NCBI GenBank assembly: GCA_963677595.1
Contig: OY782041.1
Coordinates: forward strand, 576,001 to 640,000
DNA length: 64,000 bases
DNA from: Spirochaetia bacterium
GTDB taxonomy: Bacteria > Spirochaetota > Spirochaetia > CAKZLE01
Direction: 5' to 3'
This document shows, one piece after another, positions 616-11,970 of this stretch (positions are counted from its first letter, which is position 1; every line of letters starts with the position of its first letter). The notes beneath the pieces are model-generated. The model had not been told where the DNA came from. It saw nothing but the letters and a program-made list of their open reading frames with translations, and ran no database searches. A program made the translations under genes and the position numbers.

Positions 616-1050
616 CTACGCCAGGACCTGCTGGGCGACTTTGAGCGTGTACAGGTCCGGGATCGAGCCGCTCACCCGGCTATCACCATCAAGGAGGTCG
701 AGCCGGAAGGCCATCTCGCCCTCCTCATGGAACAGGAAGGGGTTCATCGCCATGATGATGTTGAGCTTCTTTGCCCCAGGCCTCCTGTTCAAGTCGGCCG
801 TCGCAATCACATTGACCGGTCCCCCATCGGTGCGGGAGGAGAGCCTGGCACGACAGAAGGAGGCAGCATCCTCCCCTTCTTCAAGCACGATCCGGATGAA
901 GAAGGCGAGGTTCTTGGCCCTGGGCCAGGAGTCCTTCTTTGCCGGGGGGACATGGAAGATTATCGCATCATCATAGATCCCCATCAGGGAGTGCTTATTC
1001 CCGACCTCCCTCCTGATATCCTCACAGATGATGCATGCTTTCAGTCTCAT
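616..1050 (-). CDS. DUF6941-like hypothetical protein (144 aa), third gene of the TA operon
   Basis: Start re-assigned to MRLKACIICEDIRREVGNKHSLMGIY with AGGAG upstream. The CEDIRxExxxKxSLxGI motif resembles DUF6941 (from memory). The sequence is beta-strand rich. Confidence 0.65.
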   Translation of the reverse strand: MRLKACIICEDIRREVGNKHSLMGIYDDAIIFHVPPAKKDSWPRAKNLAFFIRIVLEEGEDAASFCRARLSSRTDGGPVNVIATADLNRRPGAKKLNIIMAMNPFLFHEEGEMAFRLDLLDGDSRVSGSIPDLYTLKVAQQVLA

Positions 1051-1057
1051 ACGTTCT

Positions 1058-1675
1058 TCACTCCTTGGGGCAGCTGTCGCCGGGTTCGGCGGTAGCGGTA
1101 TCGAAGTCACAGCAGCCCTCCTCCAGCTGTAACGCCGGGGCGGCCGTGCAGTAGACGGTATCATCGCAGGGTGCACTCTCCGGGCTGACCGTCTGTACCG
1201 GGTTCGGGAAGGACATCCCGTCGATCAGCTTCCCGGTGATCAGCTTCAGGAAGTACTTCTGGGAGAAATCATAATCATACTTCTCCTCTGCAATATCCAG
1301 CAGCCAGGGAAAGGTCCTGAGCATGTTGAAGAGGGTATACGCCGCAGCACTGGGTCTTGAGTTCCCCGTCTTCCACTTCGATATCGTCCGCTGGGGCAAG
1401 TCGAGGACCCGCTCCATGGAAGCGAAGCTGTATCTGTTCTCAAGGAAGTACTCGAGGATGTTCTCCATGGCTTCCTTCTTCAGATCAGCCTCTGCAGCCT
1501 GCAGCAGGGCATCCGGGTCTCCCTCGGCATACACCTCATATTCACAGCTCCCGCACGTACGTGTGCTGTAGTCGACCGTCCTGGAACTCCCCGAATAGGG
1601 TTCGGTGACCACAAGGGAATCATTCCTGATGACTACCGAGGCCTCCCCGCACAGGGGGCAAACGTTTCGGCTCAT
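1058..1675 (-). CDS. MqsA-like antitoxin (Zn ribbon + XRE HTH) with long C-terminal tail
   Basis: CPLC...CGSC zinc ribbon followed by an HTH (SFASMERVLDLPQRTISKWKTGNSRPS). 4-nt overlap with the upstream toxin; GGAGG RBS. Confidence 0.8.
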   Translation of the reverse strand: MSRNVCPLCGEASVVIRNDSLVVTEPYSGSSRTVDYSTRTCGSCEYEVYAEGDPDALLQAAEADLKKEAMENILEYFLENRYSFASMERVLDLPQRTISKWKTGNSRPSAAAYTLFNMLRTFPWLLDIAEEKYDYDFSQKYFLKLITGKLIDGMSFPNPVQTVSPESAPCDDTVYCTAAPALQLEEGCCDFDTATAEPGDSCPKE

Positions 1676-2055
1676 GTTATACCTCCGTTATACAGGCAGC
1701 CGTCCACAGCGAGGGAACAGGTCGATCGCTTGAAGGACTTCAGGTACCATCTCCCGCTCACCGGGTTGTTGAGGAAGGCGATGTACCCGGTCTTCCTGCC
1801 CGACGTGAACAGGTAGGAATCCACCCAGACGGGATGCTCCCGGTCTGGGATGATATGCCCTACATGATTCCTCAAGACCTCCGACCGATCGAACCTGAGG
1901 TTCTCCAGTCCGCCGTTCCCGATGAAATCGAGCAGCCGCCCCGTCCCCCGTATGTTGAAATCGGCATAGGCATCCCTCACAGCTGCCGGCCTGACATCGA
2001 TGTTCGTATGGGTCCGGCAGGAACAAAAGAACGCCTCGGCTGTATATACTACCAT
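1672..2055 (-). CDS. Putative MqsR/RelE-fold mRNA interferase toxin
   Basis: 127 aa, toxin-first position before an MqsA-like gene. C-terminal DSY...YIAF...WYLKSFK resembles the MqsR end motif. Confidence 0.6.
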   Translation of the reverse strand: MVVYTAEAFFCSCRTHTNIDVRPAAVRDAYADFNIRGTGRLLDFIGNGGLENLRFDRSEVLRNHVGHIIPDREHPVWVDSYLFTSGRKTGYIAFLNNPVSGRWYLKSFKRSTCSLAVDGCLYNGGIT

Positions 2056-2069
2056 GCCTGTACTACCAG

Positions 2070-2096
2070 ATTATACGTTACGTATACGTTTGTCAA
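2070..2096 (-). promoter_or_regulatory. Sigma70 promoter with overlapping palindromic operator for the TA operon
   Basis: TTGACA-15 nt-TATAAT on the minus strand (spacer is short). Palindromes TATACGT-T-ACGTATA (2072-2086) and ACGTATACGT (2080-2089) overlap the spacer and -10. Confidence 0.7.
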
Positions 2097-2338: not shown

Positions 2339-5300
2339 ATGGCGATAGAATTCGATATGACACTCTTCCTACTCAGGAACCTGGGAATCGTCCTCGCTTC
2401 CATCGGCGCCGTGCTCCTGACGGCCTGGCTGGTCAAGGGGAGACCGAAGCAGCTCAGCATCAGGCATTCCCTCATAACCATCGGGTTCGTCTACGCGGGG
2501 ATGCTCCTCTCGATCACCTTCTTCGTGATACTCCTGCACCATACTTTCGAGCAAGAGGATGAGATCGCTGACCACAACCTGGAATCTGTCTATCTCGCCT
2601 TCGAGCTGAAGCGCTCATCAGACGATCTCACCCGTTTCGCACGCTCCTATGCGGTGACGGGCGATCCCGATTACGAGGAGTATTTCTACCGAAGCGTTGC
2701 TGTCCGGGACGGGGTCATCCCCCACCCTGCGACCATCACCCCCTTCTACTGGGACTACGAAGCTGCAGGAGAGATGGGGATCGACACGAATGGTGAGTCC
2801 TACAGCATCGAGGAACGGATCCTGGCACTGGAGCTCACCGCAAAGGAAGAGGAGAAGCTCCTGGGGGCAAAGAAGGAGTCGGATGACCTGATCAGCCTCG
2901 AGCAGCGGGCCTTCAATGCCATGAAAGGCATATTCCCCGATGAGGCAGGTGCTTATACGGTCGAAGGGGCCCCTGACATGCCCCTGGCACAGCAGCTGCT
3001 CTACGGGGAGGAATACCTCCAGTCGAAAGCGGCGATCATGAAGCTGCTCGAACAGTTCTTCTCGCTGCACCAGGTGAGGATGTCCAGTGAGAAGCTGCTG
3101 CTGTACACCAAAGTCAATGCGCTCATGGTTACCATCACCCTGCTGGTCACCATGATGATCGGGTTCTCGGTCTATGTCTTCTTCCTCCTGAGGAGTCGCA
3201 TCATACAGCCGTTCAATGCCTTCGAACAGGGGGCGGAAGCCTTCAGGAAGGGGGATTTCCAGCACCAGATCGAGGTCGGTTCAGACGATGAGATCGGCTC
3301 CCTCGCCGCACTCCTCAACACGACCGCACGGAGCGTCGGGGAGAGGACCTCCCAGCTCCATGCCACCATCGAGTCGACCACTGACGGTATCCTGGTACTC
3401 GACCTGAACCAGAAGATAACCTCGTACAACGCTCGGTTCCTCAGGATCTGGAAGATAACCCGGGAGATGATCGAGACGGAGGATGACCAGACCATGTGGG
3501 AGGTCTTCCTCTCCCAGCTGCAGGACCCTGAGGGGTTCATGAGGAACTTCGAGCATATAACGGCACATCCCGAGATAGAGGACTTCTCCACCCTCCTCCT
3601 GCAGGATGGACGGATCATTGAACGCTATTCCAGGCCCCAGCGCCTGGAAGACCAGATCATCGGCAGGGTATGGAGTTTCCGGGATGTCACGGAACGCTAC
3701 CAGACAGAGGCTGAGATGAGAAAACTCTCCCAGGCTGTAGAAGCCAATCCCGCCTCTGTCGTGATCACCGATACGGCCGGGACCATCGAGTACGTCAACC
3801 CGAAGTTCAGCGAGATGACGGGCTACGCTCCCGAAGAGGCCATCGGCAGGAAGCCGAACCTGCTCAAGTCTGGTACCCATGCCCCTGAGTTCTACCAGGG
3901 ACTGTGGGACACGATCTCTTCCGGGAGGGTCTGGCACGGTGAGCTCTGCAACAGGAGGAGGGACGGCTCGCTCTACTGGGAATCGGCATCGATCGCACCG
4001 GTACAGGACGAGCAGGGACGGATCACCAACTATGTCGCGGTCAAGGAGGACATCACCGAGCGCAAGGAGCTGGAGACGACGCTCAGGACACATGATGAAC
4101 GGCTGAAGGAAGCGGCCAAGATAGCGGATCTCGGTTATTTCGAGGTTGATCTCCATACCCTGAGAGGGACCTTCGATGAGTTCCTGTGGGAGCAGCTGGG
4201 GACCTCGATCGAGGAGGAGGGAACCGATGAGATCAAGGTCAGCACCTACCTGGAACGGTTCTGCCACCCTGATGACCGGGAGACTATCACGCGTGAACTG
4301 CAGCACCTCATGGAGGCTTCGGAGGCCCTCTACACGGAACTCGAATACCGCATCATTAGGACGGACGGGACCCCCCGGAACGTCTATGTGCGATACAGGC
4401 TCCAGCTTGACGGAGAGCATAAGCCGCAGAAGGTATATGGTGTCATCCAGGATATAACAGCAAGGAAGCAGGCGGAGCTGGAGATCCTCAAAACCCGGGA
4501 AGAAGCGAAAAAGAATGAGGAGAAGCTGATCGAGGCTGCCGAGATCTCGAACCTGGGCTACTTCGAGCTTGACCTGCATACCCTCATTTTCACCCTCGAC
4601 AGCCTCCTGTGGAAGCAGTTGGGCACATCTATCGAGGAACAGGGGGGGAACAGCATCGACGCAGCCGAGTACCTGATGACCTACTGCCACCCTGAGGATC
4701 GCAGCAGGATCGAGTGGCACATCCAGCGGTCACTGGCCGCGCATGAAGTGATCGAGGACCAGATGGAGTACCGGGTACTCCTGGGGGACAGTACGATCAG
4801 GAATTTCGATGTCAGGTACCGTGTCCTGGTTGATGCCCAGGGAGTACCCTACAGGTCATACGGCTTCCACCATGATGTGACAGGTCTCAAACAGGCTGAA
4901 CAGGAGATCCTGCTGGCTAAGGAGGCTGCCGAGAAAGCCACTCTCGCGAAGAGCGAGTTCCTCGCCAACATGAGCCATGAGATCAGGACCCCGATGAACG
5001 CGATCATCGGGATGAGCCAGCTCGCACTCAGGACCGAGATGCCCTCCAGGCAGAGAGACTACCTGAAGAAGGTCGAGACCTCCTCGAGGACACTCCTGAA
5101 CATCATCAACGACATCCTCGATTTCTCCAAGATCGAGGCCGGCAGGCTCGATCTGGAATCCATCCCCTTCTCTCTCGATGATGTCCTGACCACCCTCTCC
5201 GACATGATCGCGGTCAGCTGCCAGGCCAAAGGGATCGAGTTCGTCTTCGATACCGATCCCCGGCTCTCCGGGCAGCTGGTCGGGGATCCCCTGAGGATAG

Positions 5301-7102
5301 GACAGATCCTTCTCAATCTCTGCAGTAATGCCGTCAAGTTCACCGATGAAGGGGCGATCGTACTTACCGCCGAGGTAGAGAAGCAGTATGATGCGGGGCT
5401 GATGGTGCGGTTCAGCGTACGGGATACCGGGATCGGCCTGACAGTCGAACAGCAGGAGCGGCTGTTCCAGTCCTTCTTCCAGGCTGACTCCTCGACCACC
5501 AGGCAGTACGGCGGTACCGGCCTTGGGCTTGCTATCTGCAGGAACCTTAGCACCCTCATGGGCGGGGATATCGGGGTGAGTTCCCAGCCGGGAAAGGGGA
5601 GCACCTTCTGGGTCACGGTTCGCCTTGGGGGCCTATCCGCAGGATCTAAAGCCTCTCCTGAGAGTTCGCAGCGCCGCAGGGTCCTGATCGTAGAGGGCAA
5701 TAAGACGACAGCGGGGGCCTTGGGCCGGATGGCGGAGAGTCTCGGGCTGGAGGTAACGACAGCCGATTCACCGGGGGAAGCCGCCGAGCTGCTGGTACAG
5801 GAAGAGAAGGAGGTGCCTATCTCCATGGCGCTTATCGATGCCCGGCTGCCGTATGCAGACCTGCAGGGGATCGGGGGCGAACAGGTACGCACCGTCGTCC
5901 TGGTCACCGCTTTCCTCCAGGAAGAGCTGATCAGGGACGCCGGGGAAGTAGGGATCACCTCCTACCTCATCAAGCCGGTCTGCAGGTCTCAGCTTGGCAG
6001 GCTGGTCGATGGAGAGCCGGCCGGTATCCAGCAGGGAACGGCTGGGCTTGTCGAAACCGTAGATATCGAACCGATCCGCGGGGCAAGGATCCTGCTCGTC
6101 GAGGACAATGAGTTCAACCAGCAGGTTGCCGCCGAACTGCTCAGGGGTGAGGGGTTCTTCGTCACGATAGCCGTGAACGGGGAAGAAGCCGTGGAGGCCG
6201 TCGTCTCAGCAGGGCCTGCATCATGGGACGCCGTGCTCATGGACCTCCATATGCCGGTCCTGGACGGGTTCACGGCGGCACGTAGGATCCATGAAGATGA
6301 ACGGTACAGGAATCTTCCCGTCATTGCCATGACCGCAGATGCCCAGGAGGGTACAAGAGGACGGATCGCTGCCGGGGGGATGGTCGATTTCGTGACCAAG
6401 CCGTTCGAGGTCGGCACCCTCTTCTCGACCTTACGGAAATGGATCAAGCCGGGAAACCGCACACTGCCGGAAGGATACAGCATACCGGGCAGGGGGCAGA
6501 AGATCTCACTTATACTGCCGGGCATAGATTGTGATGCAGGACTCGCGAGGGTAGACAACCATCCCGGCAGGTATCTGAAGCTGCTGCGAACGTTCGTCTC
6601 CAACCAGGAAGGGACAGCCCTCCTCATCCGGGACAGTCTGGATTCCGGGGACCTGGAGACGGCATACCGGGCAGCCCATACACTCAAGAGCGTCTCCGGC
6701 ACCCTCGGTGCCAAAGCCCTGCAGGAGAAAGCAAGGGCCTTGGAGACCGCCCTGCAGCAGGGGGAAGCACCAACTGCCCGTACCTTGTTGGAGGACGTCA
6801 GAACGGTACTGCACAGCACCCTCACGGTCATCCGTAACGGCCTGCCGGAACTCGAACTGCTGTACCAGGATGAGGGATCCGGTGATGGGGAGAGCCTCCA
6901 GGAGCTCTCTGCACAGCTCGGGCAGCGCCTGCTGGAAGATGATGCACGGGCTGAGGAGCTCATCGAACGGATGCTGGTCATGGCTGAAGGGCCATTGGAG
7001 CGGGAGGCCTACCGGTCGATCCAGGAAGACATCCTGGATATCGAATACAGGAAAGCCTACAAGAAGTTAACACAGATGGAGAGAGGAGGATCCGATGGCT
7101 AA
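2339..7102 (+). CDS. Membrane hybrid sensor histidine kinase (TM, HAMP, 4 PAS, HisKA, HATPase, 2 REC, HPt)
   Basis: FLANMSHEIRTPMN H-box, NAVKFT, DTGIG, GGTGLGL, REC MDLHMP and HPt AHTLKS motifs. Confidence 0.95.
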   Translation: MAIEFDMTLFLLRNLGIVLASIGAVLLTAWLVKGRPKQLSIRHSLITIGFVYAGMLLSITFFVILLHHTFEQEDEIADHNLESVYLAFELKRSSDDLTRFARSYAVTGDPDYEEYFYRSVAVRDGVIPHPATITPFYWDYEAAGEMGIDTNGESYSIEERILALELTAKEEEKLLGAKKESDDLISLEQRAFNAMKGIFPDEAGAYTVEGAPDMPLAQQLLYGEEYLQSKAAIMKLLEQFFSLHQVRMSSEKLLLYTKVNALMVTITLLVTMMIGFSVYVFFLLRSRIIQPFNAFEQGAEAFRKGDFQHQIEVGSDDEIGSLAALLNTTARSVGERTSQLHATIESTTDGILVLDLNQKITSYNARFLRIWKITREMIETEDDQTMWEVFLSQLQDPEGFMRNFEHITAHPEIEDFSTLLLQDGRIIERYSRPQRLEDQIIGRVWSFRDVTERYQTEAEMRKLSQAVEANPASVVITDTAGTIEYVNPKFSEMTGYAPEEAIGRKPNLLKSGTHAPEFYQGLWDTISSGRVWHGELCNRRRDGSLYWESASIAPVQDEQGRITNYVAVKEDITERKELETTLRTHDERLKEAAKIADLGYFEVDLHTLRGTFDEFLWEQLGTSIEEEGTDEIKVSTYLERFCHPDDRETITRELQHLMEASEALYTELEYRIIRTDGTPRNVYVRYRLQLDGEHKPQKVYGVIQDITARKQAELEILKTREEAKKNEEKLIEAAEISNLGYFELDLHTLIFTLDSLLWKQLGTSIEEQGGNSIDAAEYLMTYCHPEDRSRIEWHIQRSLAAHEVIEDQMEYRVLLGDSTIRNFDVRYRVLVDAQGVPYRSYGFHHDVTGLKQAEQEILLAKEAAEKATLAKSEFLANMSHEIRTPMNAIIGMSQLALRTEMPSRQRDYLKKVETSSRTLLNIINDILDFSKIEAGRLDLESIPFSLDDVLTTLSDMIAVSCQAKGIEFVFDTDPRLSGQLVGDPLRIGQILLNLCSNAVKFTDEGAIVLTAEVEKQYDAGLMVRFSVRDTGIGLTVEQQERLFQSFFQADSSTTRQYGGTGLGLAICRNLSTLMGGDIGVSSQPGKGSTFWVTVRLGGLSAGSKASPESSQRRRVLIVEGNKTTAGALGRMAESLGLEVTTADSPGEAAELLVQEEKEVPISMALIDARLPYADLQGIGGEQVRTVVLVTAFLQEELIRDAGEVGITSYLIKPVCRSQLGRLVDGEPAGIQQGTAGLVETVDIEPIRGARILLVEDNEFNQQVAAELLRGEGFFVTIAVNGEEAVEAVVSAGPASWDAVLMDLHMPVLDGFTAARRIHEDERYRNLPVIAMTADAQEGTRGRIAAGGMVDFVTKPFEVGTLFSTLRKWIKPGNRTLPEGYSIPGRGQKISLILPGIDCDAGLARVDNHPGRYLKLLRTFVSNQEGTALLIRDSLDSGDLETAYRAAHTLKSVSGTLGAKALQEKARALETALQQGEAPTARTLLEDVRTVLHSTLTVIRNGLPELELLYQDEGSGDGESLQELSAQLGQRLLEDDARAEELIERMLVMAEGPLEREAYRSIQEDILDIEYRKAYKKLTQMERGGSDG

Positions 7103-8171
7103 GATCCTGATCGTTGACGACTCCGCCGAGAATCGCGGGATCATCAAGGGACTGCTGGGAGAGTCGCATACTATCTATCTCGCGAAGGACGGCAGTCAGG
7201 CCCTGCGCCTGGCCCGGACACGGGTCCCGGACCTCATCCTGATGGATGTGGTCATGCCGGTGACTGACGGGTATGAGGCCTGCAGGATCCTGAAGGGGGA
7301 CAGTCTCACCGCTGACATACCCATCATCTTCCTCACCTCACTCGATGAGACTGATGATGAGACCAAGGGACTGGAACTTGGTGCTGTCGACTATATCACG
7401 AAGCCGATCACCCCCGCGGTCCTCAAGGCTCGGGTCAGGACCCACCTTGAGCTGAAAGCCTCGGGAGACCTCCTGAAGCGCCATAACGAGGACCTTGAGG
7501 AGAAGGTCCTCGAGAGGACACGACAGCTTGAACAGCTCCATGATGTGACGGTCATAGCCATGAGTGCCCTTGCAGAATCAAGGGACTTCGAGACCGGCTA
7601 CCATATTCGGAGAACCCAGTATTATGTGGAGGCCCTCGCACAGGAACTCAGGGAGAGACCGGGATTCAGCGAAGCCCTGACCCCCGAGAACATCGTCTCG
7701 ATCGTGAAATCCACACCCCTCCATGATATAGGGAAGATCGGGATCCCCGACAGGATCCTGCAGAAGCCGGGAAAACTGACCGCGGAGGAGTTCGAGATCA
7801 TGAAGCAGCACACGATCATCGGCAGGGATGCCATCATCGCCGCAGAACGATCCATGACGATCACCGATGATTTCCTGCAGTACGCCAAGGAGATCACCTG
7901 TTCCCATCATGAGCGGTGGGACGGCACCGGTTACCCGGAGGGGTTGAAAGGCGGGGAGATCCCCCTCTCGGCACGGATGATGGCCATCGCCGATGTGTAT
8001 GATGCCCTGATCTGCCGCAGGGTCTATAAACCACCCTTCTCCCATGAACAGGCTGTGAAGATCATCACAGAGGGAAGAGGGACCCATTTCGATCCCGACA
8101 TGGTAGATGCGTTCCTCGAGATCTCCGACCAGTTCCGCATGATATCAAAGCAGTTCAGTGAGACAGAATGA
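7095..8171 (+). CDS. REC + HD-GYP response regulator (RpfG-like c-di-GMP phosphodiesterase)
   Basis: N-terminal REC domain; LHDIGKIG, HHERWDGTGYP and ADVYDAL motifs; overlaps the kinase stop. Confidence 0.95.
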   Translation: MAKILIVDDSAENRGIIKGLLGESHTIYLAKDGSQALRLARTRVPDLILMDVVMPVTDGYEACRILKGDSLTADIPIIFLTSLDETDDETKGLELGAVDYITKPITPAVLKARVRTHLELKASGDLLKRHNEDLEEKVLERTRQLEQLHDVTVIAMSALAESRDFETGYHIRRTQYYVEALAQELRERPGFSEALTPENIVSIVKSTPLHDIGKIGIPDRILQKPGKLTAEEFEIMKQHTIIGRDAIIAAERSMTITDDFLQYAKEITCSHHERWDGTGYPEGLKGGEIPLSARMMAIADVYDALICRRVYKPPFSHEQAVKIITEGRGTHFDPDMVDAFLEISDQFRMISKQFSETE

Positions 8172-8294
8172 CACAGAAAAATGCTTACGATTCTGTAGGA
8201 TGAACAGGGAGAAACCATACAATAATGTAATCTTTACCAAAAAATGGATAGCGTATTCATCGCATGACAGGCCTGAATCCTACGTTTTCTGTGT

Positions 8295-8311
8295 TTGGTA
8301 CGGAAAATGCT
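8295..8311 (+). promoter_or_regulatory. Putative sigma54 (-24/-12) promoter of the molybdoenzyme operon
   Basis: TTGGTACGGAAAATGCT has GG-N10-GC spacing and is close to the TGGCAC-N5-TTGC consensus. Confidence 0.5.
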
Positions 8312-8404
8312 GCTAAAACAGCTGTGACCTGATTCATTATAATCAGGATCTTTCATACACTGTTGTGTATCGAATAAACAAAGAACTATATGGAAGAGGA
8401 ACGC

Positions 8405-10621
8405 ATGCAGCACCGAATGGTTGGAAGACATATCGCACGGGTGGACGGGCCGGAGAAGGCCACGGGAAGGTTGGAGTATATGTCCGATATCACCGTGCCG
8501 GGTATGCTCTACGGCAAGATCCTCCTCTCACCATACCATCGTGCTGAGATCGTGCATCTCGATCACACCGAAGCCATGAAGGTCAGGGGTGTCGTGAAGG
8601 TCGTCACCGCAGATGACATCCCCGGGGAGAACGCCCGCGGGCTCATCATACAGGACCAGCCGGTCCTCTGCGACAGGTTCGTGAACTTCAAGGGCGACGC
8701 GGTCGCCGTCGTCGTTGCGGAGAGTGAGGAAGCGGCATTAGAGGCCTGCAGCCTCATACAGGTCGACTATAGAGAACTCCCGTATACCAGGACAGCCGAA
8801 GAGTCCCTTGAGCCGGGTGCCCCGGAGATCCATGAGGGCGGCAACATCGCCGCCCGGAATGCCTTCAGCTCTACCGATGATATCGAATCAGTCTTTGCTA
8901 GAGCACCCCATGTCTTCGATGAGACGTTCGAGACCGGGTACCAGGAACATGCCTACTTAGAGGCAGAGAACGGCTTCGCAGTCCCCCGTGAGGACGGCAG
9001 TATCGAGATCTGGTACGGGTGCCAGCATGGGCATCGGGCCAGGAGGGACCTCCAGGCGATCCTGGATCTCCCGTTAGAGAAGATCGAGGTCCACTCCCAC
9101 CCCCTTGGGGGAGGCTTCGGGGGGAAGGATGACCTGCTGCTGCAGGGGATCCTCGCAGTATGCGCCCTCGCCTGCAGGCGGCCCGTCGCAATCAACCTTA
9201 CCAGGGAAGAATCCTTCCGGATGAGCCCGAAGCGGATGCCCTTCCAGATCAGGACGAGGATCGCAGCTGATGCAGAAGGGAACCTGCTGGCACTCAAGGT
9301 GAATATACTGGGCACCGCTGGAGCCTATATGTCCTACGCGCCGGCGATCCTCGATTTCGCCCTGGAGCTCTGCACCGGGATATACTTCTTCCCCCACCTC
9401 GATATTGAAGGCAGGGTGGCATACACGAACAGCCATCTCGTCAGCGCGTTCCGGGGGTTCGGGAACATCCAGGTCGCTTTCGCTATCGAGTCCATGATGG
9501 ACATCATCGCCGAGAGACTCCAGCTCGACAAGCTCGAGCTTCGTCGCCGGAACATGGTCACTCCCGGGCAGAAGCATAGTTTCGGCAACGTCTCCAGTAC
9601 CAGCTATTATTCTCAGGAGCTGATAGACAGGGTAGAGAAGTCCGCCCTTCTCAACCGGGCTGGTGAGTTCAAGGCCGGGGCAGCTAAGCCTTGGCTGAAG
9701 CGCGGCATCGGCATCGCGACGACCCATCAGGGCATGGGGTTCGGAAGCCCTGCCATTAACGATGCCTCGACCTGTGAGGTCGAGCTCCGGGAAGACGGGA
9801 GGCTCCATGTCTTCTTCGGTAATGAGGATATGGGACAGGGAAGTATCACCACCCTGCTGATCATGGCTGCCGAGGCGATGCATATGCCGATCGACCAGAT
9901 CTCCTACACCAATGGGAATACGGCATTGACCCAGGACTCAGGCCCGATCACCGCATCACGCGTGACCTATGTCTCGGGGAAAGCCGTCTGCCGCTGCATC
10001 GAGAAACTCCAGGGTCACATAGCTTCAGTCCTGAGCTGTGAAGTCGCAGAGCTCAGCTATACTGATGGAGGGGTGAACGGGAGAAGCTGGCAGGAGATCG
10101 CCGGGATGCTCCCGCCCGGGGACAGGCGCCAGGCACATACGGAAGCGATCGCGAAAGAGGGGTTCCAGACCTCAGTCAGCCTGAACCTCTTCTACTGCCA
10201 TGCTGCGCTTGTCGCCGGGGTGGAGGTCAACACCCTGACAGGAGAGACGATGGTACTTGAGACGGAGATCATCGTCTCCAGCGGGACGGTCATCAACCCC
10301 CTCGGGTATGAGGGGCAGTGTGAAGGCGGTGTCCTCATGAGCCAGGGGTTCGCCCTGACCGAGGAGTACCAGGACGGGACGAGGAACTTCCAGACCTATA
10401 TGGTCCCGACCTTCGCCGATATGCCGGAGATCAAGGTCACCCCGATCGAGGATCCCGAGGAGACCGGGCCGTACGGGGCCAAGGGACTTGGTGAGATAGT
10501 CAACGTGCCCGGGGCCCCGGCAATCATCAACGCGGTACATGATGCCGTGGGGATCAGGCTCATGAAGCTGCCGGCGACCTCCCAATCGGTGCTGACTGCC
10601 CTGACCGAAGGCATGGCATGA
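8405..10621 (+). CDS. Xanthine dehydrogenase family molybdopterin-binding subunit
   Basis: QEHAYLE, GGGFGGK, AFRGFG, DMGQG and GAKGLGE motifs. Confidence 0.93.
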   Translation: MQHRMVGRHIARVDGPEKATGRLEYMSDITVPGMLYGKILLSPYHRAEIVHLDHTEAMKVRGVVKVVTADDIPGENARGLIIQDQPVLCDRFVNFKGDAVAVVVAESEEAALEACSLIQVDYRELPYTRTAEESLEPGAPEIHEGGNIAARNAFSSTDDIESVFARAPHVFDETFETGYQEHAYLEAENGFAVPREDGSIEIWYGCQHGHRARRDLQAILDLPLEKIEVHSHPLGGGFGGKDDLLLQGILAVCALACRRPVAINLTREESFRMSPKRMPFQIRTRIAADAEGNLLALKVNILGTAGAYMSYAPAILDFALELCTGIYFFPHLDIEGRVAYTNSHLVSAFRGFGNIQVAFAIESMMDIIAERLQLDKLELRRRNMVTPGQKHSFGNVSSTSYYSQELIDRVEKSALLNRAGEFKAGAAKPWLKRGIGIATTHQGMGFGSPAINDASTCEVELREDGRLHVFFGNEDMGQGSITTLLIMAAEAMHMPIDQISYTNGNTALTQDSGPITASRVTYVSGKAVCRCIEKLQGHIASVLSCEVAELSYTDGGVNGRSWQEIAGMLPPGDRRQAHTEAIAKEGFQTSVSLNLFYCHAALVAGVEVNTLTGETMVLETEIIVSSGTVINPLGYEGQCEGGVLMSQGFALTEEYQDGTRNFQTYMVPTFADMPEIKVTPIEDPEETGPYGAKGLGEIVNVPGAPAIINAVHDAVGIRLMKLPATSQSVLTALTEGMA

Positions 10622-10654
10622 TACAAGAGATCACGAACAGAGAAGAGAGATAAG

Positions 10655-11131
10655 ATGCTGCATATACGATTTACACTGAACAACGAAGAAGTCGAGGCTG
10701 CTATCCCAGAGGGGACCAGGGTCATCGACCTGATCAGGGACACGTTCAAGCTGACGGGGACCAAGGAGTCCTGCGGCCAGGGGGAATGCGGGTCGTGCAC
10801 GATCCTCCTTGATGATGAGGCCGTTCACTCCTGCCTGCTCCTGGCAGCCCAGGTAGATGGGCATCGGATCGTGACGATCGAGGGACTTGAGAAGGACGGC
10901 GAACTCGATGTACTGCAGCAGGCATTCATCGATGCCGGGGCGATCCAATGCGGATACTGCACCCCCGGTATGATCATGGCGGCGAAGGGGCTGCTGCTTC
11001 ATAATCCATCACCAAGCCCTGAGGAGATCAGGGAAGCGATGTCCGGGAACCTGTGCCGGTGCACCGGGTACAAGAAGATCGGTGAAGCCGTCGCGCTGTC
11101 AGCCGAACGGCAACAAGGTTCGGGGGTATGA
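10655..11131 (+). CDS. Xanthine dehydrogenase family (2Fe-2S) subunit
   Basis: CGQGECGSCT, QCGYCTPG and GNLCRCTGY motifs. Confidence 0.95.
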   Translation: MLHIRFTLNNEEVEAAIPEGTRVIDLIRDTFKLTGTKESCGQGECGSCTILLDDEAVHSCLLLAAQVDGHRIVTIEGLEKDGELDVLQQAFIDAGAIQCGYCTPGMIMAAKGLLLHNPSPSPEEIREAMSGNLCRCTGYKKIGEAVALSAERQQGSGV

Positions 11132-11970
11132 GTATGAGGCTCTCCATAGACAAGATCTATCAATGCGAAACCATAGACCAAGCCCTGGATCAACTCAAGC
11201 AGGATCCTTCAGCGATCGTGCTGGCGGCAGGGACGGATATCATCCCTACCCTTCGTGACCGTGTTCAGGAGCATGTCAGGCTCGTGGACCTGCAGGGTAT
11301 ACAGGGACTGGACCATATCAGGCTTGAGGAGGGTGTTCTGAGAATCGGGTCCATGGCCATGCACCAGGAGATCGCGGACAACCCGGTCGTGGGAGACCTG
11401 CTGCCGGCCCTGGCCCAGGCCTGCCGGGTGATCGGATCCCCGCAGATCCGCAGGCGTGCGACCATCGGGGGGAATATATGCCATGCATCGCCAGCGGCAG
11501 ACACCCTGCCCGTTCTCGTTGCAGTTGGTGCCCATGCAGTCATCAGAACCCCGGAAGGGACGAGAACCGTCCTGCTGGAGCAGTTCACTACCGGCGTGAA
11601 GAAGACGGTCATGCCGCAGGCTGCGATCCTTGAAGAAATAACGATTCCCATCCCTGCAGGCGGTTGGAAGGGGAACTACTACCGCCTGGGAGGGAGGAAT
11701 GCCCTCACCATCTCGATAGCGGCTGTTGCAGTCATACGGGATACAGACGGGTTCCGGGTGGCTTATGGGTCCATGGCCCCGGTCGTAAGAAGGATCCAGG
11801 CTGTTGAGACATACCTGAATACCTGTGAGCATGCAGACAAGGCTGTCCTGAATGATCTAACGACCCAATCCCTCTCCCCTATTTCAGATATTCGGGCTTC
11901 AAAGGAATATAGGACACAAGTAGCTGCCAACTTCACCTGGCTTGGGTGGCAAGAGTTGATGGGTGTGTGA
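11128..11970 (+). CDS. Xanthine dehydrogenase family FAD-binding subunit
   Basis: AAGTD, IGSPQIRRRATIGGN, ASPAAD and DIRASKEYR motifs. Confidence 0.93.
   Translation: MSMRLSIDKIYQCETIDQALDQLKQDPSAIVLAAGTDIIPTLRDRVQEHVRLVDLQGIQGLDHIRLEEGVLRIGSMAMHQEIADNPVVGDLLPALAQACRVIGSPQIRRRATIGGNICHASPAADTLPVLVAVGAHAVIRTPEGTRTVLLEQFTTGVKKTVMPQAAILEEITIPIPAGGWKGNYYRLGGRNALTISIAAVAVIRDTDGFRVAYGSMAPVVRRIQAVETYLNTCEHADKAVLNDLTTQSLSPISDIRASKEYRTQVAANFTWLGWQELMGV

Follow-up and report, generated by a model that had tools for sequence, protein, structure and literature searches.

The closest described counterparts of the locus examined here are the toxin-antitoxin-chaperone (TAC) systems, whose defining part is a SecB-like chaperone, which both keeps the antitoxin stable and detects phage proteins, and new examples of which have been found through SecB searches. 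According to the available portions of the sources, SecB-dependent TACs are built on HigBA, MqsRA and HicAB pairs, their antitoxin tails measure 30-42 residues and have no common sequence, and TA-associated SecBs make up more than 7% of the SecB family (Bordes 2016, PMC5105189); the tail makes neutralisation depend on the SecB-like chaperone, for which phage proteins compete (Mets 2024, bioRxiv 10.1101/2024.02.24.581848; Bordes 2016, PMC5105189), and the ChADs of TAC antitoxins are hydrophobic (Mets 2024). In a 64,000-nucleotide stretch of DNA from a Spirochaetia bacterium (contig OY782041.1, positions 576,001 to 640,000; the window), we analysed an operon that resembles these systems (MqsRAC, HigBAC, HicAB-SecB and CmdTAC) in its order of toxin, antitoxin and third gene and in the variable extension of its antitoxin, which here runs C-terminally past the core, and that differs from them in its third protein, a predicted immunoglobulin (Ig)-like sandwich instead of SecB. 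The operon is TAC-like by architecture and is not a TAC member by the SecB-based definition; DUF6941 triples of this kind probably form a parallel to TAC systems that is undescribed and does without SecB.

The initial annotation had read three tightly coupled ORFs behind a promoter with a palindrome, and all of these elements are present. On the minus strand lie a toxin-like ORF (gene 1, 2055-1672; 127 aa, MqsR-fold by model), an antitoxin ORF (gene 2, 1675-1058; 205 aa, with a CxxC...CxxC zinc ribbon, HTH, FPW helix and tail) and a DUF6941-like ORF (gene 3, 1050-616; 144 aa, counted from its ATG at 1050). Genes 1 and 2 share 4 nt (ATGA, 1675-1672) and genes 2 and 3 are separated by 7 nt (1051-1057), a spacing that suggests co-transcription of all three. 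Shine-Dalgarno-like sequences on the same strand precede the antitoxin start (GGAGGT, 1681-1686) and, within the last antitoxin codons, the start of gene 3 (AAGGAG, 1061-1066); an alternative in-frame GTG at 1176 would lengthen gene 3 to 186 aa, and its relatives start at the equivalent of the Met at 1050. The putative sigma-70-type promoter, also on the minus strand, consists of two perfect consensus hexamers, TTGACA (2091-2096) and TATAAT (2070-2075), whose sub-optimal distance of 15 nt, against the 16-18 nt scanned, explains why the pair is missing from the promoter-scan list. Overlapping the -10 box is a 15-bp palindrome (7+1+7, 2072-2086), the exact copy of which is unique in the genome; the share of sequences with a palindrome of this form is 1.9% among 3000 random 78-mers from the genome and 1.0% among 3000 shuffles. 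It is likely the operator of the antitoxin, whose binding there is predicted. In two public runs, one of them possibly the source sample, the contigs cover the tail and show no indel in the ORFs, and the 28 substitutions in the ORFs, each scored singly, comprise 18 synonymous and 10 non-synonymous changes and no stops (in gene 3 alone the counts are small, 3 synonymous and 1 non-synonymous). From the lack of indels and the synonymous excess we conclude that the operon is genuine and seems to be maintained. That a frameshift or an error of assembly gave rise to the odd antitoxin tail was ruled out by these contigs and by the comparison of 39 tails described below.

The toxin and antitoxin resemble E. 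coli MqsR/MqsA (PDB 3hi2) in toxin fold, in the zinc ribbon and HTH of the antitoxin and in the promoter palindrome. Gene 1 has no family match in Pfam, NCBIfam, PHROG or PADLOC, and Atlas gave a weak MqsR lead (score 0.79). Its structure model, built with a 29-sequence alignment (pLDDT 89), found E. coli MqsR (3hi2_D) as the best VIA match among 48,161 chains, with Z 10.3, rmsd 2.3 and 88 aligned residues, the next match reaching Z 5.3; Foldseek matched MqsR weakly (E 0.27, probability 0.96), as did hhalign when the gene 1 family was compared with phage MqsR-type toxins (probability 1.3). Identity to E. coli MqsR over the structural alignment is 15%. Residues K56 and Y81 are reported as essential in MqsR in the available part of Yu 2022 (PMC9636575). 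Y91 of gene 1, invariant in 29 of 29 sequences, is plausibly the equivalent of Y81, whereas the position spaced like K56 (by eye) is Arg (R57) in the window copy and mostly Asn in its relatives. Since the K56 equivalent is not clearly conserved, RNase activity is an inferred property of gene 1, which is predicted from its model to be an MqsR-fold, toxin-like RNase. Gene 2 matches TIGR03830 over residues 6-127 of 205 (E 2.7e-9, below the curated cut-off) and PF15731 (E 8e-4, likewise below cut-off), and the four cysteines of its two CxxC motifs (C6, C9, C41, C44) are invariant in 32 of 32 sequences. It departs from MqsA in its extension, about 78 residues past the 127-position TIGR03830 model, and the pair departs from E. 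coli MqsR/MqsA in being followed by a third gene.

Gene 3 matches Pfam DUF6941 (PF22091) over residues 5-119 (E 8.9e-5; 23.3 bits against a gathering cut-off of 27), scores 0.96 for DUF6941 in Atlas, and belongs to an alignment of 40 relatives of which 33 match the family at E<=0.01, that same model having been used to select 8 of the rows. Several TA-linked relatives lie above the cut-off (L166, 28.7; L167, 29.6; L168, 33; L180, 66; L182, 30), and of the 94 proteins that a profile search yielded, 93 carry the DUF6941 label. Word-indexed homologue searches with single proteins returned only the query or a 98% identical copy, plasmid tblastn with the window toxin and gene 3 returned nothing, and sequence searches of the PDB found no significant match for the toxin, gene 3, or the Treponema third gene and RelE-like family introduced below. 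The structure model (pLDDT 96, pTM 0.87) is all-beta: it has at least eight strands and lacks any helix of at least 4 residues, and its Foldseek and VIA matches are Ig-like sandwiches aligned end to end, which predicts that gene 3 is itself an all-beta, Ig-like sandwich. The VIA matches include the Wzt C-terminal carbohydrate-binding domain (Z 9.9, rmsd 3.1, 112 aligned), RhoGDI (Z 7.8) and the Pycsar AGS-C domain (Z 7.2), and the fold neighbours also include UNC119 and PDE-delta; these proteins are Ig-like beta-sandwiches of similar size, with 8-14% identity to gene 3, a likeness at the level of the fold only, and gene 3 differs from them in standing alone in a TA operon. No match stands out, so a fold can be assigned and a function cannot.

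Gene order, similar size and a tailed antitoxin, all as in MqsRAC, would fit a very diverged SecB and hence an ordinary MqsRAC TAC. SecB consists of long helices packed on one sheet, at odds with the helix-free model of gene 3; the 50 best VIA matches are, to judge by their titles, proteins with a beta-sandwich, and an hhalign comparison of the gene 3 profile with a Pfam-confirmed SecB found no similarity (probability 0.12), so that we consider such an origin highly improbable. SecB is also absent among the Foldseek and VIA matches listed, an absence that alone excludes nothing; that gene 3 is not SecB-like rests on its positive assignment to the Ig-like fold. The initial annotation's description of an MqsRA-like pair followed by a DUF6941-like protein that is not SecB is thereby upheld, the antitoxin part through matches below cut-off.

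The arrangement is conserved. The toxin alignment picked out 22 GTDB loci, of which 15 have a DUF6941-like gene directly 3' of the antitoxin, including one in which gene 3 is frameshifted and one in which it is cut by the contig end, and these loci span five phyla, Pseudomonadota, Thermodesulfobacteriota, Myxococcota, Bacteroidota and Spirochaetota; they support the linkage to tail-extended antitoxins for which the initial annotation had proposed a neighbourhood survey. Of the outcomes that would have spoken against that annotation, neither a SecB fold of gene 3 nor a want of conserved linkage to TA pairs was observed. The DUF6941 sub-clades track their TA clade. Six of the other seven loci (three from Atribacterota, two from Treponema and one from Methylovulum) carry a different small third gene, and one carries none.

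These other third genes belong to several types. The Atribacterota gene (L069:1548-1976, L072:1841-2269, L073:3951-4379) encodes a conserved protein of 142 aa, which to the eye is helical and which matches nothing in Pfam or PADLOC, and two of its three loci have very long antitoxin tails. The Treponema-type gene (L033:2418-2789, L045:3927-4316, L082:3930-4310) encodes 123-130 aa; a by-eye reading as SecB was unconfirmed by Pfam, NCBIfam, hhalign and PDB searches, and no relation to DUF6941 was found either, so we do not claim a swap of SecB and DUF6941 within the toxin family. L033 and L074 are one locus, from a Treponema genome that shares its class with the window genome, which is accordingly a spirochaete. 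In Methylovulum a small beta-rich ORF (about 80 aa) of another family fills the third slot (L063:~3990-4230). A viral contig (L045:1572-4316) carries two tandem triples adjoining an integrase-like gene: the first, with a toxin that is ART-like by eye, a small gene and a Pfam-confirmed SecB, is CmdTAC-like, and the second joins a toxin-antitoxin pair of the window family to a Treponema-type third gene. Broken copies were also seen, with a frameshifted gene 3 beside an IS-like gene (L064:4008-4434), with the toxin split into two ORFs (L081:2071-2475), and with the antitoxin tail truncated and gene 3 missing (L043:926-1459).

Seen from gene 3, the linkage extends to other hosts and other TA families. 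Of 210 metagenome loci, the best 80 were ranked by likeness to the window gene 3, a sample biased to close relatives with many near-copies; an antitoxin of the window family lies upstream in 67 of them, and 13 are without an upstream pair. The search model contained TA-linked sequences, so fractions counted from gene 3 lean upward. A TA-like pair precedes DUF6941 in 10 of 14 distinct viral loci (17 minus 3 near-copies), in 6 of 8 matches from 401 Pseudomonadota genomes, and in all three plasmid loci read out of 8 matches, where one triple stands beside a TIR gene and another beside a restriction endonuclease. Pfam-supported MqsR/MqsA genes precede DUF6941 in four viral loci (L047, L052, L057, L061) and in Pseudomonas phage Hali (L165, PQ533658.1, Hali_26-24), where the order is integrase-MqsR-MqsA-DUF6941, the MqsA is tailed (205 aa) and all are annotated as hypothetical; several viral triples adjoin genes that look repressor-like by eye. 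The Pseudomonadota matches divide into one of the window clade, one behind HicA-HicB, four behind a toxin-like gene and an extended HTH protein, one behind an HTH gene only and one unrelated; the HicB (L180) has a C-terminal extension. By-eye HicAB-like neighbours at two further loci (L007, L017) gave no HicA/HicB matches. A viral protein of 519 aa carries a DUF6941-like N-terminus in an apparent fusion (L060:2501-4060).

A further kind of triple combines an unannotated RelE/ParE-like family of about 137-148 aa with HTH antitoxins bearing long N-terminal extensions, followed by DUF6941 (L048, L050, L055, L059, L166, L167, L182, L183, L186). The RelE/ParE label rests on weak Gp49/ParE matches in two viral members only. 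The extension in these triples is often N-terminal, which sets such relatives apart from TACs.

The antitoxin tail was compared across the family. After the core, relatives of gene 2 share a conserved FPW helix, which is followed by a variable tail of about 50 residues; in the window this candidate ChAD-like element comprises residues 154-205 (1058-1216, minus strand). The initial annotation had described it as an acidic tail of roughly 50 residues, rich in Pro and Cys, and for the window copy this is accurate (10 D/E, 1 K, 7 P and 5 C). It does not carry over to the family: among 39 tails the window tail is the most acidic, the most Pro- and Cys-rich and the least hydrophobic, whereas the family tails are hydrophobic, a median of 32% of their residues being hydrophobic and a median of 11% aromatic. 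Being an outlier of the window copy, the acidic, Pro/Cys-rich make-up cannot be a family recognition signal. Tail length, in contrast, is typical: measured from FPW it is 84 in the window and 62-94 in antitoxins linked to DUF6941 (n=21), against 46, 55 and 60 in those without any third gene, which are of separate lineages and have the shortest tails. The comparison covers 31 non-redundant antitoxins from the GTDB loci and from spirochaete and viral loci (DUF6941 follows 21 of them, counting the window copy, a different third gene follows 7, and 3 lack a third gene), and its naive p of 0.003 ignores kinship. A second MqsRA-like pair of the window genome, which belongs to the same family (G000:C1:3040902-3041771, L037), is among the three without a third gene; its toxin is 46% identical, it has its own TTGACA promoter, and its short-tailed antitoxin of 165 aa makes it a natural tail-less control.

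TAC and DUF6941 triples are alike in having been recruited by MqsRA, HicAB and RelE/HigB-type pairs and in being found in prophages, and SecB and DUF6941 are alike in existing both linked to TA pairs and outside them. Since DUF6941 is preceded by the three kinds of pair that TACs use, again with extended antitoxins, the simplest reading is that the Ig-like protein has SecB's role; the DUF6941 triple is likely a second, undescribed, chaperone- or sensor-controlled toxin switch. More specifically, gene 3 may take SecB's place as the dedicated holder of the antitoxin tail in a conserved three-gene operon, a proposal by analogy that we regard as evenly balanced and that draws on anatomy, on predicted folds, on linkage across phyla and three TA families, and on the shorter tails where a third gene is lacking. 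If so, the tail would destabilise the antitoxin unless bound by gene 3, which could bind it by adding a beta-strand to the edge of its sandwich or by burying hydrophobic residues; the antitoxin would repress the operon at the palindrome; and gene 3 would be drawn off by a phage protein that competes for it or by folding stress, whereupon the antitoxin would be degraded and the RNase would halt translation. RhoGDI, UNC119 and PDE-delta hold hydrophobic tails, and a common fold shows no function. Counted against gene 3 as a tail holder are the least hydrophobic of the 39 tails in the window itself, the many solo DUF6941 genes, the N-terminal extensions in the RelE/ParE-like triples, the lack of defence neighbours at the window locus and the Arg or mostly Asn at the K56 position. 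The argument from tail length is weakened by there being three short-tailed cases only, by one DUF6941-linked tail of just 62, and by the adjacency of tail and gene 3, both of which a single deletion could clip. Modelled as a complex, gene 3 and antitoxin residues 118-205 gave a prediction (score 0.01, mark 0.32) that counts neither way.

The same observations bear on several other accounts of gene 3. It might be a trigger, an Ig-like sensor of a phage product or small ligand that activates the toxin through the antitoxin extension, in which case the toxin-antitoxin pair would be neutral without gene 3 but unable to respond. Ligand-binding Ig-like domains are indeed the best fold matches (Wzt, and AGS-C further down), the conserved residues of gene 3 cluster in an N-terminal motif (C-D-D-I-R-x-E...K.S..G), locations in prophages, next to repressor-like or integrase genes, are consistent with defence, and the antitoxin can be extended at either end; yet Z values of 7-10 are typical of any Ig sandwich and do not single out AGS-C, and shorter tails without gene 3 fit dependence equally well as sensing, which leaves a sensor-trigger rather unlikely in our estimate. 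We think it unlikely, too, that gene 3 is co-transcribed cargo, for instance a second defence or stress protein under the TA promoter that makes no contact with the antitoxin: at least three unrelated families fill the third slot (the Treponema alpha/beta protein, the helical Atribacterota protein and the small Methylovulum ORF) and DUF6941 has solo branches, as cargo would predict, but the tight coupling is repeated with three TA families that have extended antitoxins, it is kept across five phyla, and the tails are shorter where gene 3 is absent.

A further account confines itself to the window genome, where the coupling of a TAC-like family would have decayed, the tail drifting to a soluble, acidic form beside a self-sufficient MqsRA and a vestigial gene 3. 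The extreme composition of the window tail, the position of the locus among ordinary genes and the short-tailed second pair of the same genome are in keeping with such decay, whereas the tail keeps the length typical of DUF6941-linked antitoxins and gene 3 is intact, with more synonymous than non-synonymous changes in its small sample; we take decay to be quite unlikely.

On a broader view, held tentatively and with somewhat more doubt than belief, DUF6941 would be an independently evolved, Ig-fold counterpart of SecB, a chaperone or phage sensor recruited repeatedly by MqsRA, HicAB and RelE/ParE pairs and serving also as a solo housekeeping protein, and its triples would form a widespread, overlooked tripartite class of anti-phage systems. 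If this is true, the class would be invisible to SecB-based searches and to two-gene TA surveys, since its third protein is built on an unrelated Ig fold; chaperone-gated toxin release would have evolved at least twice; and an uncharacterised Pfam family would gain a function, with DUF6941 proteins as new modular phage sensors. The three genes are small, and the copy on phage Hali, a cultured temperate phage, makes an accessible test case. The term DUF6941 was found in no paper by a search whose scope lay outside supplements and most subscription journals, where an unnamed, tabulated mention is possible, and the literature on tripartite TA systems, judged from titles and the starts of abstracts, contained SecB-type TACs and unrelated tripartite systems only. 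The available portions of Gerdes 2024 (PMC10865869) and Gerdes 2025 (PMC11980606) describe no non-SecB third component of the DUF6941 kind.

Addiction and defence would be attributed to DUF6941 triples by analogy with TACs only, and PADLOC 2.0 gave no match to the three window proteins or to 37 proteins of related triples. The window locus is not part of a defence island; it is flanked by an M24 peptidase and by a 1587-aa gene with the look of a hybrid histidine kinase, and GC content is 0.53-0.61 there and 0.55 in the genome as a whole. In 20 relatives the counterparts of the flanking peptidase were too distant for an insertion site to be defined. A defence gene recognised by PADLOC (for example PglZ, a type I or IV restriction enzyme, AbiL, SoFic or PDC-S27) is present within 2-3 kb at about 7 of 32 related loci, a proportion that comes from a scan of 61 of 101 listed ORFs with no background control. 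With such neighbours at relatives and none at the window locus, genomic context suggests a role in defence for the window-family triple, the window copy excepted. In one relative the operon (L041:1501-3357) stands directly upstream of a BREX pglZ. In the window, the kinase with its HD-GYP response regulator is followed by a xanthine-dehydrogenase-like molybdoenzyme cluster (2339-11970, by eye), unrelated to the operon.

DUF6941 also occurs alone. The Pfam model has matches in 35 of 401 Spirochaetota genomes, 24 of them in one family, and most of the 12 loci read among 30 fetched with it are solo genes among ordinary neighbours; this solo spirochaete clade, which the Pfam model fits best, is separate from the TA-linked clade. 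The solo gene is present in 24 of 75 genomes of that one family (f20), and at the two f20 loci read (L009, L018) its neighbour is by eye a 2-oxoglutarate dehydrogenase E1 gene, which suggests a housekeeping branch.
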